From a phage: DNA of 39,736 nt. The position numbers and the translations under genes were made by a program. Where the stretch lies: sequence record PZ379179.1; one strand, written 5' to 3'. The notes beneath the pieces are model-generated. The model searched no databases and was not told the origin of the DNA. It was given only the letters and a program-made list of their open reading frames with translations. Shown here in pieces: positions 2,814 through 26,026 of this stretch (positions are counted from its first letter, which is position 1; every line of letters begins with the position of its first letter).

Positions 2814-2836
2814 ACTTAACTATCACTATAGGACTC
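2814..2836 (+). promoter_or_regulatory. Phage RNAP promoter upstream of the RNAP gene
   Basis: TTAACTATCACTATAGGA matches the genome-wide promoter consensus; predicted +1 G at 2831. Followed by direct repeats AAGTGAAAGAC (x2) before the RNAP start. Confidence 0.6.
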
Positions 2837-2905: not shown

Positions 2906-5587
2906 ATGAGCGTCATCTCTATTGACAAGCACGACTTCTCTGATGTATCGAACGCCATTGAGCCGTTTAACCTACTGGCTGACCACTACGGGCAAGACCT
3001 TGCAGTCAAACAGCTTCAGCTTGAGCACGAGGCATACACTGAAGGCGAGCGACGTTTCATCAAGAACCTTGAGAGACAGACTGAGCGAGGGGAACTGGCA
3101 GACAATCAGGTCGCCAAGCCTTTGATGCAGACTCTGGTCCCTAAGATTGCGCAAGCCGTCAAGGAGTGGCATGAAGGTCCAGACGGGAAGCTGTCAACCT
3201 CTCGTCCGAGCGTAGCGTTCACCATGTTGAGCACTGAAGAGAAGGCCGTAAAGGTCCGCTCTTTGCGCATCTCCTGCGAGTCTGCTGCGGTTATCATACT
3301 GAAGGTCATACTCTCCAAGCTGGTCAAGCCTGAAGGGATACCGATTACACCGATGGCCTCAGCGATAGGTCGCACACTTGAGGACGAAATCCGCTTCGGT
3401 CGCATCCGTGACAAGGAGAAAGAGCACTTCAAGAAGGCGATAGCTGATAACCTGAATAAGCGGGCCGGGGCGTCCTACAAGAAAGCCTACATGCAAGCGG
3501 TCGAGGCATCCATGCTGGAGCAAGGCCAACTGGAAGATGCGTGGGGGACTTGGAGTCCGACCGAGGCTGTCCACGTTGGAATCAAGATGCTGGAGATTGT
3601 CATCCAGTCCACACAACTGGTCGAGCTTAAGCGTTACGGTGCTGGCAATGCAGCGGCTGACGTTGAGATGGTCCACCTGTCAGACTTCTGGGTCAAGAAG
3701 ATGGCACAACGAGGATTCAGCCTTGCGGGTATAGCTCCAGTCTACCAGCCTTGCGTCGTTCCACCTAAGCCGTGGACTGGTGTCGTAGGCGGTGGGTACT
3801 GGGCCAAAGGACGCAGACCATTACCACTGATTCGCTTAGGGTCTAAGTCTGCGGTAGCACGCTACGAAGACGTGTATATGCCTGAAGTCTATGACGCTGT
3901 GAACATCATTCAGAATACACCTTGGAAAGTGAACAAGAAGGTTCTGGAAGTGGTGAACATGGTCGAGAAGCTGAACAACACGCCTATTGATGACATCCCT
4001 CAGATGGAACCGCTGAAGCCTGAGGACTATGCGGGTGAGACTGAAGAAGAACTCAAGGCATGGAAGAAGGCTGCTGCTGGTATCTATCGCCGCGAGAAGG
4101 CCAGACAGTCACGAAGATTGTCACTGAGCTTTATCGTCAACCAAGCGAACAAGTTCTCTCAGTTCAAGGCCATCTGGTTCCCGTATAACATGGACTGGCG
4201 CGGTCGCGTCTACGCTGTGCCGATGTTCAACCCTCAGGGTAACGACATGCAAAAGGGTCTTCTGACTCTGGCAGTCGGTAAGCCTATTGGTGCTGATGGT
4301 TTCAAATGGCTGAAGGTCCACGGTGCAAACTGCGCGGGTGTCGATAAAGTCACCTTCGAGGAGCGTATCAAGTGGGTGGAAGATAACCACGAAAACATCA
4401 TGGCTGCTGCCAAGGCACCGATGGATAGCATTGAGTGGTGGGGCAAGTTAGACTCTCCGTTCTGCTTCCTAGCGTTCTGCTTCGAGTATGCTGGCGTAAT
4501 GCACCACGGCTTGTCTTACTCCTGCTCGCTGCCGATAGCGTTCGATGGGTCCTGCTCTGGGATTCAGCACTTCAGCGCTATGCTTCGCGACCACATCGGT
4601 GGACATGCAGTAAACCTGACGCCATCCGGTAAGGTACAAGACATCTACCGAATTGTGTCTGACCGCATTGAGGAGCAGCTTAAAGTCCTGCTGATTAACG
4701 GTACTGACAACGAGATGGTCACTCACGAGGATAAGAAAACTGGTGAGATTACCGAACGTATCAAGCTGGGGACACGAGAGCTGGCCCGTCAGTGGCTGAC
4801 ATACGGTATGTCACGCAAGGTCACTAAGCGTTCAGTCATGACTCTGGCATACGGGTCGAAAGAGTACGGCTTCGCAGACCAAGTTTACGAGGACATCGTG
4901 ATGCCAGCGATTGACTCAGGGTATGGCGCTATGTTCACCGAGCCAAGCCAAGCGTCTCGATTCATGGCTAAGATGATTTGGGAAGCTGTGAGTGTGACCG
5001 TAGTTGCTGCGGTTGACGCGATGAAGTGGCTTCAAGGTGCTGCCAAGCTGCTGGCTGCTGAAGTGAAGGACAAGAAGACTGGCGAAATCCTGAAGCCATG
5101 CCTTCCGGTACACTGGGTAACACCTGATGGTTTCCCTGTCTGGCAGGAATACCGCAAGAAGGATACCACTCGTCTGAACCTGATGTTCTTAGGGTCATTC
5201 AACCTTCAGCCTACAGTCAACAAAGGAACGAAGAAAGAGCTTGACAAGCACAAGCAGGAGTCAGGCATTAGCCCTAACTTCGTCCACTCACAAGATGGTA
5301 GCCACCTGCGGAAGACTGTAGTCCACACTCACCGCAAGTATGGCGTGATGTCATTCGCAGTGATTCACGATAGCTTCGGGACCATCCCTGCTGACGCTGA
5401 GTATCTGTTCCGTGGTGTCCGTGAGACGATGGTCGAGACATACCGCGATAATGATGTGCTGCTTGACTTCTACGAGCAGTTCGAATACCAGCTTCATGAA
5501 AGTCAGCGCGACAAGTTGCCTGAGCTTCCGAAGAAAGGTAAACTGAATATCGAAGACATCTTGTCTTCAGACTTTGCATTCGCTTAA
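2906..5587 (+). CDS. Single-subunit DNA-directed RNA polymerase (T7 gene 1 homolog)
   Basis: 893 aa; collinear with recalled T7 RNAP, including AFDGSCSGIQHFSAMLRD, VIHDSFGTIPAD and the C-terminal DFAFA. AAGGA RBS 8 nt upstream. Confidence 0.97.
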   Translation: MSVISIDKHDFSDVSNAIEPFNLLADHYGQDLAVKQLQLEHEAYTEGERRFIKNLERQTERGELADNQVAKPLMQTLVPKIAQAVKEWHEGPDGKLSTSRPSVAFTMLSTEEKAVKVRSLRISCESAAVIILKVILSKLVKPEGIPITPMASAIGRTLEDEIRFGRIRDKEKEHFKKAIADNLNKRAGASYKKAYMQAVEASMLEQGQLEDAWGTWSPTEAVHVGIKMLEIVIQSTQLVELKRYGAGNAAADVEMVHLSDFWVKKMAQRGFSLAGIAPVYQPCVVPPKPWTGVVGGGYWAKGRRPLPLIRLGSKSAVARYEDVYMPEVYDAVNIIQNTPWKVNKKVLEVVNMVEKLNNTPIDDIPQMEPLKPEDYAGETEEELKAWKKAAAGIYRREKARQSRRLSLSFIVNQANKFSQFKAIWFPYNMDWRGRVYAVPMFNPQGNDMQKGLLTLAVGKPIGADGFKWLKVHGANCAGVDKVTFEERIKWVEDNHENIMAAAKAPMDSIEWWGKLDSPFCFLAFCFEYAGVMHHGLSYSCSLPIAFDGSCSGIQHFSAMLRDHIGGHAVNLTPSGKVQDIYRIVSDRIEEQLKVLLINGTDNEMVTHEDKKTGEITERIKLGTRELARQWLTYGMSRKVTKRSVMTLAYGSKEYGFADQVYEDIVMPAIDSGYGAMFTEPSQASRFMAKMIWEAVSVTVVAAVDAMKWLQGAAKLLAAEVKDKKTGEILKPCLPVHWVTPDGFPVWQEYRKKDTTRLNLMFLGSFNLQPTVNKGTKKELDKHKQESGISPNFVHSQDGSHLRKTVVHTHRKYGVMSFAVIHDSFGTIPADAEYLFRGVRETMVETYRDNDVLLDFYEQFEYQLHESQRDKLPELPKKGKLNIEDILSSDFAFA

Positions 5588-5602
5588 CAGGAGGAGAAGT
5601 AT

Positions 5603-5833
5603 ATGTCAATGAAACTTGTAGCACACAACAGGACATACAACGATGGGTCGGGACGTTGCCACGTAGAGCTGACTTATAAGGATTTAATCATTCTCCGAGA
5701 CAGATTACAGTCGGGTGTGACTGGGTGGATTCAACCTAACGAGTACAACCTTATAGCTTCGATTGATGAAGTTCTTAACGCGTGGATGGAAGACGAGCGC
5801 ATTCAGTATCCGTCATTCCCTCTAATTAGATAA
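5603..5833 (+). CDS. Hypothetical protein downstream of RNAP (76 aa)
   Basis: ATG with GGAGGAG RBS; no T7 counterpart at this position that I recognise. Confidence 0.55.
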   Translation: MSMKLVAHNRTYNDGSGRCHVELTYKDLIILRDRLQSGVTGWIQPNEYNLIASIDEVLNAWMEDERIQYPSFPLIR

Positions 5834-5843
5834 GGAGAGAGTT

Positions 5844-6059
5844 ATGAAATTTGCACACAAGCATACTGGCGTTAATGGTGGGACTCAAATCGTGACCGTA
5901 ACAGAACACAACGGCAAGGGTCTGGTGAAGACCACGGTCATCCCTACCGAGATGTCCAAGCAGCTTAACATCCCGTTCAAGACTCTTGTATATCTGGTCG
6001 AGTCCAGCCACGAGAAGTACCTGAAGGACGCAGTGTCCAAGCTGGAGCAGGCCAAATGA
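5844..6059 (+). CDS. Hypothetical protein (71 aa)
   Basis: ATG with AAGGAGA RBS; phage-typical codon usage. Confidence 0.55.
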   Translation: MKFAHKHTGVNGGTQIVTVTEHNGKGLVKTTVIPTEMSKQLNIPFKTLVYLVESSHEKYLKDAVSKLEQAK

Positions 6060-6124
6060 CAGACATACAGTTACTGGCCCTGTGGCTGGGAGCACTCGCA
6101 GTATTCACTTTAATCCAACGCAGA

Positions 6125-6147
6125 AGAGGTTAACCCTAAACTATCAC
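6125..6147 (+). promoter_or_regulatory. Phage RNAP promoter (phi1.1-like)
   Basis: CCTAAACTATCACTATAGGA; predicted +1 G at 6142. Confidence 0.7.
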
Positions 6148-6200
6148 TATAGGATTAGACTCAAGGTCATGACTCAAAGTCGTGGCCTTCATGATTAACC
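6144..6200 (+). ncRNA. Candidate RNase III processing hairpin (R1.1-like)
   Basis: GATTAGACTCAAGGTCATGACTCAAAGTCGTGGCCTTCATGATTAACC; related copies at 13375-13417 and 36131-36171. Resembles the T7 R1.1 site as I recall it (ACTCAAGGTCATTCGCAAGAGTGGCCTTTATGATTGACC). Confidence 0.45.
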
Positions 6201-6230
6201 CTAAATAAACACTACTGGAGATTTAACCGT

Positions 6231-6410
6231 ATGTATCAGAACACTATCAACTTCGAGCGCATCCGCGAACGTCAGCAGACTGAAGGTTACATCCCTAAGG
6301 GCCGCAAGCTGAACAAGACTAAACGTGGAGGAGGTATCAAAGGTGCTTTCCGTAACGCTGAAGGTAAAGACTCTATGGTTAACCAAGAGAAATACTTCGT
6401 AGGAGCATAA
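6231..6410 (+). CDS. Gene 1.1-like small basic protein (59 aa)
   Basis: GRKLNKTKR matches recalled T7 gp1.1; below the track size cut-off, found by manual translation. Confidence 0.65.
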   Translation: MYQNTINFERIRERQQTEGYIPKGRKLNKTKRGGGIKGAFRNAEGKDSMVNQEKYFVGA

Positions 6411-6414
6411 CCAA

Positions 6415-6678
6415 ATGGGCCGACTTTATAGTGGCAACCTCAACGATTTCAAAGCAGCGTGTCACAGGCTTTATCAGTTAGACTTCGCTGTCATATCTCA
6501 GGAGTTTCAAGACTATACGTCACGCCAAGAGTGTATGAAACTCAGGGTGGAGGACCGAGCTGGTAACATCTTCGCGCTTGAGACCTTCGCACACTACGAT
6601 GAAGACGTGCTGTATAATACCGCAACCGACTACCTCAACGGTCTCGCTGACCATCTCGACACATGGAGAAAAGAATAA
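6415..6678 (+). CDS. Gene 1.2-like inhibitor of host dGTPase (87 aa)
   Basis: MGRLYSGNLNDFKAA...LRVEDRAGN...HYDEDVLYN closely matches recalled T7 gp1.2 (MGRLYSGNLAAFKAA...LRIEDRSGN...HHDEDVLFN). AGGAG RBS. Confidence 0.85.
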   Translation: MGRLYSGNLNDFKAACHRLYQLDFAVISQEFQDYTSRQECMKLRVEDRAGNIFALETFAHYDEDVLYNTATDYLNGLADHLDTWRKE

Positions 6679-7706
6679 TGACAACTATCAAAACTAACCC
6701 TCACCGCGCTGTAGATTACTCTGAGTCTGGAATTAAGAAGGCACTGGAAGCAGCCGGGTCTCTGGAAGCTGAAGTGAAGTACGATGGTGTGCGCCTGAAC
6801 CTCCTGGTCCTGCGTGAAGGTGAGACCTACTGGCTTAGCCGCGAGTCGAAACCTCTACCAGCCTTGGAGTGGATGAACTCTGAGTTAGGTAATGCGTGGA
6901 CCCAAGCTGACTGGCGATGGTTCCTGCGTCAATCCGGCTACGAAGGTGTGGGCATGATGATTGATGGCGAGGTCATGGTCAAAGGTGTAGACTTCAACAC
7001 CTCCTCAGGTCTCATCCGAACGAAGTGGCTCAAGCCTAACAACGAGGAGTTCGCTGAATACTATTCGCCGGCGACTGGTGGAAAGAAGCTCCCGTTCTGG
7101 GGATCCCGGTCACGACTTCAGGTTGTGGTCTACGGTGTCATTGACATGACAACCATTGCTGACCCGAAAGCCGAAGGTCCTATCCATAGCGTAACCCGCC
7201 TGAAGGCCGAAGCTATCGTCCCTCTTCTCCAGAAATACTTCCCGGAAATCGACTGGGTTCTGTCTGAGAGTCATACAGTGTTCAACCTTGAGTCTCTTCG
7301 TGATTTGTACGAGGAGAAGCGAGCAGATGGACATGAAGGTCTGGTAGTCAAGGACCCACTGGGCAAATACAAGCGTGGTAAGAAGTCTGGTATGTGGAAG
7401 ATGAAGCCGAGTGAAGAGGCAGATGGTCACGTTGTTCGCCCGGTGTGGGGAACAGAAGGCCTAGCCAACGAAGGCATGGTCATCGGCTTTGACGTTATGC
7501 TCGAGAACGGGATGGAGGTCTCCGCAACTAACATTAGTCGCGCCCTTATGTCCGAGTTCACGGAGAACGTTAAGTCAGACCCTGACTACTACAAAGGGTG
7601 GGCTTGCCAGATTACCTACATGGAGGAGACACCAGATGGCTCATTGCGACACCCCTCGTTCTACCAGTGGCGTGGAACTGAGGATAATCCTACAGTCAAG
7701 ATTTAA
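6678..7706 (+). CDS. ATP-dependent DNA ligase (T7 gene 1.3 homolog)
   Basis: Adenylation motif KYDGVR; MTTIKTNP...SYWLSRESK...HEGLVVKDP...KRGKKSGMWKMKP...WACQITYMEETPDGSLRHPSF collinear with T7 ligase. Track ORF begins at 6663; the ATG at 6678 overlaps the gene 1.2 stop. Confidence 0.93.
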   Translation: MTTIKTNPHRAVDYSESGIKKALEAAGSLEAEVKYDGVRLNLLVLREGETYWLSRESKPLPALEWMNSELGNAWTQADWRWFLRQSGYEGVGMMIDGEVMVKGVDFNTSSGLIRTKWLKPNNEEFAEYYSPATGGKKLPFWGSRSRLQVVVYGVIDMTTIADPKAEGPIHSVTRLKAEAIVPLLQKYFPEIDWVLSESHTVFNLESLRDLYEEKRADGHEGLVVKDPLGKYKRGKKSGMWKMKPSEEADGHVVRPVWGTEGLANEGMVIGFDVMLENGMEVSATNISRALMSEFTENVKSDPDYYKGWACQITYMEETPDGSLRHPSFYQWRGTEDNPTVKI

Positions 7707-7707
7707 A

Positions 7708-8118
7708 GTGGACGAAAGGTCGGCCTCCGGGCTGGCACTCCACTCTGGACGAAAGGTAGGAAGTAAGAAGAAGTCCGGCTATTGGACGATAAACGTCAGG
7801 ACACCGTGGGGCCGAAAGCATCTACAGGTTCATAGGGTAATATGGGAGATGACACACGGTCCCATACCAGACGGCATGGAGATTGACCACATTGACCGGA
7901 ACCCTTCTAATAACAGGCTGTCCAACCTGCGACTGGTGACTCACTCCGAGAACAACCAGAACAAAGGACAGATGTCCACCAACACTACCGGAGAACGTCA
8001 CATCTCAAAGGTGAAAGGTCGAGAGCTTTACTGTATCAAGAAGGTGGTCAACGGAGAGCGCTTGGTCCTATATGCCAAGACCATAGCCGAGGCAGTAGCC
8101 TTAAGAGATTCATTATAA
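7708..8118 (+). CDS. HNH homing-type endonuclease (copy A)
   Basis: HNH core [46 protein letters not shown]. The track ORF starts inside the ligase gene; alignment with the paralog at 36668 puts the N-terminus at GTG 7708, directly after the ligase stop. No in-frame ATG is available. Confidence 0.7.
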   Translation: MDERSASGLALHSGRKVGSKKKSGYWTINVRTPWGRKHLQVHRVIWEMTHGPIPDGMEIDHIDRNPSNNRLSNLRLVTHSENNQNKGQMSTNTTGERHISKVKGRELYCIKKVVNGERLVLYAKTIAEAVALRDSL

Positions 8119-8177: not shown

Positions 8178-8200
8178 CCTAAGCTATCACTATAGGACAA
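8178..8200 (+). promoter_or_regulatory. Phage RNAP promoter
   Basis: CCTAAGCTATCACTATAGGACAA; predicted +1 G at 8195. Confidence 0.65.
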
Positions 8201-26003: not shown

Positions 26004-26026
26004 CCTTAACTATCACTATAGGGACT
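26004..26026 (+). promoter_or_regulatory. Phage RNAP promoter (phi13-like)
   Basis: CTTAACTATCACTATAGGGACT; predicted +1 G at 26021. Confidence 0.75.

Follow-up and report, generated by a model that had tools for sequence, protein, structure and literature searches.

What is encoded between the RNA polymerase (RNAP) gene and the next phage promoter of a T7-like phage, at a position where T7 itself has no genes? The question is raised by sequence record PZ379179.1, a stretch of phage DNA of 39,736 nucleotides (this whole stretch is called the window below), in which three small open reading frames (ORFs) follow the RNAP gene: ORF1 of 76 amino acids, ORF2 of 71 amino acids, and the hydrophobic ORF3 of 25 amino acids (MTDIQLLALWLGALAVFTLIQRRRG). 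A preliminary description, made from the letters of the sequence alone, had presented them as extra small genes relative to T7, and their coordinates, lengths and sequences were confirmed. Homology searches showed that the three ORFs also occur in other genomes; ORF1 and ORF2 appear as hypothetical proteins in the phages LM33_P1, EcoDS1 and K1F. By sequence comparison, all three are genuine protein-coding genes under purifying selection. Overall, the locus is an ordinary lineage-specific accessory early region, with firm comparative evidence for one under-annotated, conserved gene of 25 codons.

Bases 5400-6700 of the window were 98.5% identical to Escherichia phage LM33_P1 and matched 569 phage records, and the top matches were all Kayfunavirus (K1F-like Studiervirinae). 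Judged by this similarity, the source of the window is a Kayfunavirus, a K1F-like relative of T7. We gathered the locus from 35 related genomes (GenBank isolates and IMG/VR contigs), which together with the window gave 36 loci. At least four genomes are duplicates, with the same phage in GenBank and in IMG/VR, and numbers of unique sequences are reported. The pooled pairwise ratio of nonsynonymous to synonymous divergence (pN/pS) in the annotated frame was 0.22 for ORF1 (4 unique sequences), 0.34 for ORF2 (27) and 0.32 for ORF3 (28), versus 0.94-2.04 in the two alternative frames across the three ORFs. Furthermore, each ORF is preceded by a Shine-Dalgarno (SD) motif, AGGAGGAG for ORF1, AAGGAGAG for ORF2 and GGAG for ORF3. 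This evolutionary evidence supports translation of all three.

ORF3, the smallest of the three, was intact in all 36 loci, in 28 unique DNA versions that encode 17 unique peptides, and its length was 25 codons throughout. It starts with ATG in 35 loci and with GTG in one, and its start overlaps the stop codon of ORF2 in every locus; in the window, the ATG of ORF3 and the TGA of ORF2 share the sequence ATGA at 6056-6059. TAA, TGA and TAG all serve as its stop codon, at a constant position. A GGAG or GAGG motif lies 7-10 nt upstream of ORF3 in 35 of the 36 loci, with a mean anti-SD duplex energy of -6.1 kcal/mol compared with a background of -3.3 kcal/mol. This motif is kept although the ORF2 C-termini that are encoded by the same bases differ (...LEQAK, ...EAEAAK, ...REVVTK, ...KAEANV). 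Depending on whether a subset or the full set was used, pN/pS of ORF3 ranged over 0.27-0.32 in frame versus 0.94-1.17 off-frame, and the variable sites were distributed over codon positions 1, 2 and 3 as 11, 9 and 18. The most divergent copy, in Kosakonia phage Kc166A (MSDSLWLVIWLALLVVYIIRQRRRG), has only 48% identity and an unchanged length, and keeps the hydrophobic core, W10 and the QRRRG tail. Because of the stop/start overlap and the conserved SD inside ORF2, we interpret ORF2 and ORF3 as a fixed, genus-wide pair that is predicted to be read by coupled translation, as the preliminary description had proposed for the window.

Searches with tblastn found ORF2 in 220 phage records and ORF3 in 176. 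All 19 viral-contig matches to ORF3 were on contigs that also carry ORF2, and ORF3 was never found apart from ORF2. The layout of the locus is RNAP gene, ORF1 (optional), ORF2 and ORF3, followed by one of three continuations. In 15 of the 36 loci, including the window, the phi1.1 promoter comes directly after ORF3. In 19 loci ORF3 is followed by a gene of ~157 amino acids (70 in SH3), which is named gp1.05 or gp1.06 in various records. The remaining two loci, Enterobacter phage vB_Ecl_MII_004 (L038, ~1100-1130) and L037, have gene 1.1 directly 3' of ORF3, and both the phi1.1 promoter and the R1.1 hairpin that follows it elsewhere are absent. L037 has frameshifts in the RNAP gene and in ORF2, which suggests a low-quality assembly.

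ORF3 is not annotated in LM33_P1, K1F, SH3, vB_EcoP_F and ASO2B, and is annotated in at least two records (GA2A and IMM-002). The GA2A entry, BOW94_gp10 (YP_009324944), is a 25-amino-acid hypothetical protein that is orthologous to ORF3 with 76% identity and likewise overlaps its upstream gene; GA2A continues with the 157-amino-acid gene, whereas the window continues with the promoter. The IMM-002 orthologue (MF630921) carries the label 'DUF2842', which is unsupported, as ORF3 had no Pfam match at E<=0.1. A different ORF of 38 amino acids, which starts with GTG and extends over 6082-6198 of the window in the +1 frame relative to ORF3, spans the promoter and the hairpin. It is annotated as a coding sequence in several records, for example those of vB_EcoP-22664BS1 and EPr2, and as an N-terminal extension of gp1.05 in IMM-002; this annotation is probably spurious, because the frame is without purifying selection (pN/pS ~1.15).

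The ORF3 peptide looks like a candidate single-pass inner-membrane microprotein. As membrane criterion we used a single hydrophobic stretch of 17 residues or more whose mean Kyte-Doolittle value exceeds ~1.6, and such a stretch is present in ORF3: the mean value over residues 4-20 was 1.88-2.38 in all 17 peptide variants. The charge of the last five residues was +3 in 16 of the 17 variants and +2 in one, while the charge of the N-terminal end was -1 in 12 variants, 0 in four and +1 in one. This asymmetry agrees with a positive-inside topology, so that the QRRRG tail is predicted to be cytoplasmic. No variation occurs at L7, W10, L11, Q21, R23, R24 and G25, positions 8, 12 and 15 repeatedly hold small residues, and substitutions are conservative (L/I/V/M, F/Y, G/A). 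No PHROG, Pfam (E<=0.1) or NCBIfam family matched ORF3, which is one of the small hydrophobic phage ORFs, a well-known class. We rejected ORF3 as a holin or other lysis-cassette peptide, because it sits in the gene 1 unit, upstream of a class II promoter and outside the lysis cassette. For a type I toxin-like peptide the criterion was homologues in bacterial chromosomes or plasmids, and a pattern scan plus tblastn over the genomes of 185,579 species of bacteria and archaea found none.

The partner gene ORF2 matched PHROG 8082, a family of unknown function, with an E-value of 4.7e-42 over positions 1-66 of 66. Its relatives form 157-191 protein clusters, and among the matches listed none was on a contig larger than ~40.7 kb. 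A profile search with divergent members returned just unnamed proteins of 65-72 amino acids on contigs of at most ~40.7 kb. K1F 'gp1.1' (CAJ29348), LM33_P1 gp10 and CR44b '1.05' are orthologues with 98.6-100% identity and have the same position, directly 3' of the RNAP gene or of ORF1. The name in the K1F record would place ORF2 in the T7 gp1.1 family, an assignment that we rejected: ORF2 had no Pfam match at E<=0.1, and PF08200 instead matches 6231-6410 (43.1 bits, cut-off 21). The names in this record (AM084414) are shifted, such that 'gp1.1' (L003 503-718) belongs to the ORF2 family and 'gp1.15' (889-1068) is the true homologue of T7 gp1.1 (PF08200). The name '1.05' is in conflict as well, as it denotes ORF2 in CR44b and another gene, downstream of ORF3, in SH3 and IMM-002 ('gp1.05').

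The AlphaFold2 (AF2) model of ORF2 has a mean confidence (pLDDT) of 93 and contains a three-stranded sheet and two helices. The protein is basic, of 7-8 kDa and of alpha/beta type, with 10 lysines versus 6 acidic residues counted from the sequence. The model resembled LptE and chaperones of the CesT/SycH/SecB type in a three-strand-plus-helix sub-structure only, with at most 14% identity, whereas these proteins are about twice the size of ORF2 and have larger sheets. Hence, neither membership nor function can be derived for ORF2 from this match.

ORF1 matched PHROG 28104, likewise of unknown function, over its full length (E 2.1e-55 over positions 1-76 of 76); ORF1 and ORF2 are thus already in the databases as hypothetical proteins. 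The 'unknown product' of EcoDS1 and LM33_P1 gp09 (PHROG 28104) are orthologues of ORF1 with 92-97% identity at the same position. ORF1 was present in six of the 36 loci and in 40 phage records by tblastn, and is lacking in K1F, GA2A and vB_EcoP_F. Compared with the latter three, it forms a clean insertion of ~240 bp with the SD motif AGGAG at both ends. Given the 40 records versus 220 for ORF2 and the clean junctions at AGGAG, ORF1 is an accessory cassette of a minority of genomes. The family is tiny, with nine clusters at >=85% identity. An exhaustive HMMER search of 1.84 billion representatives added four distant metagenomic relatives of 75-86 amino acids, and tblastn with two of these distant relatives found no isolated phage outside the 40 records. 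One further match to the ORF1 profile (E 8e-13), a metagenomic eukaryote-like repeat protein of 1640 amino acids (P0132), was judged a spurious artefact of summed repeats, because its score adds up nine repeats of a short helical motif (...ILAAYAGKEDTLMRDL...). The AF2 model of ORF1 is of low confidence (pLDDT 65) and consists of a beta-hairpin and two helices; a structure search of BFVD with this model returned the EcoDS1 orthologue alone.

Scans of the three ORFs with Pfam, NCBIfam and PADLOC matched no family, and the profiles of ORF1 and ORF2 gave chance-level matches to Protein Data Bank (PDB) sequences (E>0.3). The distribution of ORF1 and ORF2 is phage-restricted, with relatives only on short fragments or on contigs of ~40 kb.

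The features of the region are collected in Table 1. The genes follow the T7-group order, with RNAP, ORF1-3, phage promoter, gene 1.1, gene 1.2 and ligase homologues. A scan of the window that allowed at most three mismatches to the K1F-type consensus yielded 11 promoter sites versus 0.02 expected by chance. The promoter that the preliminary description had placed at 6125 is real, but begins some bases further downstream. It is an annotated promoter in ASO2B, and aligns with T3 phi1.1 and T7 phi1.1A. The hairpin that follows it aligns with the curated T3 R1.1 and with the T7 segment phi1.1A-R1.1-phi1.1B, with ACTCAAGGTCAT...GTGGCCTT.ATGATTAACC in common. It has the attributes of an R1.1 site: a place directly after phi1.1, the conserved stem, a stable fold with an internal loop, and the shape of T3 R1.1. 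Owing to this homology to T3 R1.1 and T7, we predict that it is an RNase III processing site and not a terminator. The rho-independent terminator label in ASO2B (MZ726794; L004 1064-1100) was rejected as a mis-annotation of an R1.1 homologue. An Rfam scan of 5500-6450 gave no match, and R1.1 is without an Rfam family. Downstream of the hairpin, the sequence at the phi1.1B position may be a decayed second promoter, the function of which is doubtful.

Table 1. Features of the locus and its surroundings, with positions in the window.
Feature	Position	Strand	Basis or remark
Phage-promoter-like site CTTAACTATCACTATAGG, ~75 nt upstream of RNAP start	2815..2832	+	1 mismatch to consensus
Gene 1, T7-like single-subunit RNA polymerase, 893 aa	2906..5587	+	ORF list; annotated RNA polymerase in LM33_P1, K1F, ASO2B
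ORF1, 76 aa, PHROG 28104 accessory gene	5603..5833	+	ORF list, profile match
ORF2, 71 aa, PHROG 8082 conserved Kayfunavirus protein	5844..6059	+	ORF list, profile match
ORF3 Shine-Dalgarno GGAG, inside ORF2 3' end, 8 nt before ATG	6044..6047	+	
ORF3, 25-aa hydrophobic candidate microprotein MTDIQLLALWLGALAVFTLIQRRRG	6056..6133	+	ORF list, 36-locus comparison
Phage RNAP promoter CTAAACTATCACTATAGG, phi1.1A equivalent	6136..6153	+	Exact K1F-type consensus; inferred +1 ~6152
R1.1-homologous hairpin	6152..6200	+	Alignment with T3/T7; -17.7 kcal/mol, z -3.9
Degenerate promoter-like sequence TTAACCCTAAATAAACACTACTGGAGA, phi1.1B position	6195..6221	+	Aligned to T7 phi1.1B; >3 mismatches
T7 gene 1.1 homologue, 59 aa ('gp1.15' in K1F)	6231..6410	+	Pfam PF08200 Phage_1_1, E 6e-11
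Gene 1.2 homologue, dGTPase inhibitor family	6415..6678	+	Pfam PF10922, E 6e-30; PHROG 2949
Ligase homologue	6663-7706		Gene order of T7 group

No terminator-like site was found on the + strand between 5587 and 6136, and the gaps are short, with 15 nt between the RNAP gene and ORF1, 10 nt between ORF1 and ORF2, and an overlap of 4 nt between ORF2 and ORF3. Co-transcription of ORF1-3 with gene 1 is therefore the straightforward reading, and ORF1-3 form the 3' end of the gene 1 transcription unit, bounded by the phi1.1 promoter and R1.1. By analogy with T7, the gene 1 mRNA that carries ORF1-3 would end at R1.1. The earlier suggestion that ORF1-3 are early genes co-transcribed with the RNAP holds for the co-transcription, but the three may not be strictly early. 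The promoter-like site upstream of gene 1 lies in a region that is conserved across the genus; ASO2B carries an unannotated version with two mismatches, and the 1-mismatch variant of the window recurs at 26005 and 38963. The location of the site before gene 1 suggests autoregulatory transcription of this gene; if the predicted promoter is active, gene 1 and ORF1-3 would also be transcribed by the phage polymerase. In a test for an RNase III site R1 before gene 1, the leader at 2831-2908 showed no significant fold (z -0.3).

Further downstream, between the ligase gene and the next phage promoter at 8179-8196, the ORF at 7489-8118 gave a strong Pfam match to the HNH_3 endonuclease domain (E 1.4e-23). 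This ORF probably stems from the insertion of a homing endonuclease gene, and its true start probably lies after the ligase stop at 7706.

Which explanation fits the locus best? We consider it likely that ORF1-3 are three real genes which end the gene 1 unit, with coupled translation of ORF2 and ORF3 and a role in early interaction with the host. Their products would be non-structural proteins that interact with the host and are made from the first minutes after infection onwards. As T7 and T3 do without them, the core T7-type cycle probably does not require them. Several points weigh against this explanation. The 36 loci hold duplicates of at least four genomes, and the whole group is closely related. 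The literature searched lists these genes in tables only, calls ORF1 and ORF2 hypothetical and does not mention ORF3, and we found no expression or functional data; a transcriptome paper on vB_Eco_K1B4 concerned an unrelated phage. Moreover, synonymous divergence was low in the last seven codons of ORF3, with a pS of 0.16 versus 0.38 in codons 2-18. This 3' conservation acts partly at the nucleotide level, as these codons contain the SD (AGAGG) of the next gene; they also mark the junction of modules. Finally, ORF2 types and ORF3 haplotypes are found in all four combinations, and thus give no signal of co-evolution that would point to a specific contact between ORF2 and ORF3.

At the level of mechanism, we tentatively propose as the most likely course that ORF3 would span the inner membrane of the host with one helix, its short acidic N-terminus (MTD) facing the periplasm and its QRRRG tail the cytoplasm. 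A conserved face formed by L7, W10, L11 and the small residues 8, 12 and 15 would bind a membrane protein of the host and modulate it. Small membrane regulators of bacteria, ~30-50 amino acids in size, act on membrane proteins in this manner. ORF2 would be the most likely cytoplasmic partner of ORF3, made in the same ribosome run and kept at a fixed ratio by the coupling; this partnership is proposed because of the strict co-occurrence and the coupling alone. The proposal as a whole is plausible yet short of probable.

A division of labour without partnership is a possible, if somewhat unlikely, alternative. ORF2 would then be a basic cytoplasmic takeover factor that binds nucleic acid or protein, whereas ORF3 would be a membrane-active peptide that acts alone, for instance by excluding superinfecting phages or by depolarising mildly, in the manner of type I toxins or holin-type peptides. 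The free combination of ORF2 types with ORF3 haplotypes fits this alternative, as do the excess of lysines over acidic residues in ORF2 and the size and composition of ORF3, which resemble those of small hydrophobic toxins. Such toxins, of the TisB, ShoB and Ibs families, have 19-35 amino acids. Arguments against this alternative are the strict co-occurrence and overlap in 36 of 36 loci, the finding that ORF3 never occurs elsewhere, its position outside the lysis cassette and its lack of bacterial homologues. A closer partnership is doubtful: ORF2 and ORF3 might form a hitherto undescribed two-component early module, in which a chaperone-like ORF2 delivers or holds ORF3 and the pair disables a host inner-membrane function, with candidate targets such as a membrane-anchored defence or the DNA-entry route of superinfecting phages. 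If this were true, ORF3 would be among the smallest conserved functional phage proteins known.

For ORF3 itself, the main rival is that translation matters and the peptide does not. Ribosomes that finish ORF2 would re-initiate on ORF3 and thereby be handed on to the SD and start codon of the gene behind it, the ~157-amino-acid gene or gene 1.1, or they would melt local RNA structure, while the peptide would have no function. In 21 of the 36 loci, 4-8 nt separate the ORF3 stop codon from the ATG of the gene that follows, with the SH4 gene table (PMC4925675) as a further source; the AGAGG in the last codons is the SD of that gene, and the 3' third of ORF3 is nearly invariant in nucleotides. Such a relay needs no specific amino acids, yet the hydrophobic core is under selection (pN/pS of 0.32 in codons 2-18), substitutions are conservative, L7, W10 and L11 are invariant even in Kc166A, and the length is constant. 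Moreover, the window and 14 other loci keep ORF3 although a promoter, and not a gene, comes next. We therefore regard a relay with a functionless peptide as improbable.

It is highly improbable that ORF3 is untranslated and its open frame a by-product of a conserved DNA or RNA element beside phi1.1, such as an upstream promoter element, a junction at which modules recombine or part of an origin of replication. Such an element would fit the near invariance of CTTAATCCAACGCAGAAGAGGTTAA, a segment that coincides with the point from which the downstream modules differ, and the location of the primary origin of T3 and T7 near these promoters. However, the variable sites concentrate at third codon positions, purifying selection is confined to the ORF3 frame, three different stop codons occur at one position while start, overlap and SD are all conserved, ORF3 persists in L038, where promoter and R1.1 are absent, and it is clear of the core promoter because it ends upstream of promoter position -17.

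The interpretation of ORF3 as a translated gene of the gene 1 unit has practical consequences. A microprotein gene is missing from most Kayfunavirus records, K1F and LM33_P1 among them, which calls for an annotation correction. K1F is a widely used chassis for engineering and phage therapy, and LM33_P1 is a therapy candidate; deletions or insertions of DNA beside gene 1, or use of the phi1.1 region as a neutral site, would disrupt ORF3 unknowingly. As it is kept in all genomes examined, coupled to a small folded protein and predicted to be made early in infection, ORF3 is a reasonable candidate for a role in takeover of the host membrane or in anti-defence.

Several small membrane proteins offer a comparison for ORF3. 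The bacterial inner-membrane regulators AcrZ, MgtS, MgtR and KdpF and the hydrophobic type I toxins TisB and ShoB share with ORF3 the size class of ~20-50 amino acids, a single hydrophobic helix, which is predicted for ORF3, and charged termini. They have no sequence homology to ORF3, which differs from them in being phage-encoded and coupled to an upstream gene.

In comparison with T7, the early statement that gene 1 is followed directly by the phi1.1 promoters proved correct, as T7 gene 1 ends at 5822 and phi1.1A lies at 5848 with no ORFs between them, and ORF1-3 are extra genes at this position. T7 has no phage promoter before gene 1, where the window has the promoter-like site. Nor did ORF1-3 turn out to be conserved T3/T7-group genes of known function, which the preliminary description had named as fatal to its interpretation, because none of the three has a known function. 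T3, like the window, carries more than T7 does between genes 1 and 1.1, namely the small gene 1.05. We rejected ORF1 and ORF2 as counterparts of T3 gp1.05 (NP_523302), since BLASTP gave no alignment at E<=100. Furthermore, gene 1.05 of T3 comes after the phage promoter phi1.05 and overlaps the origin, unlike ORF1-3.

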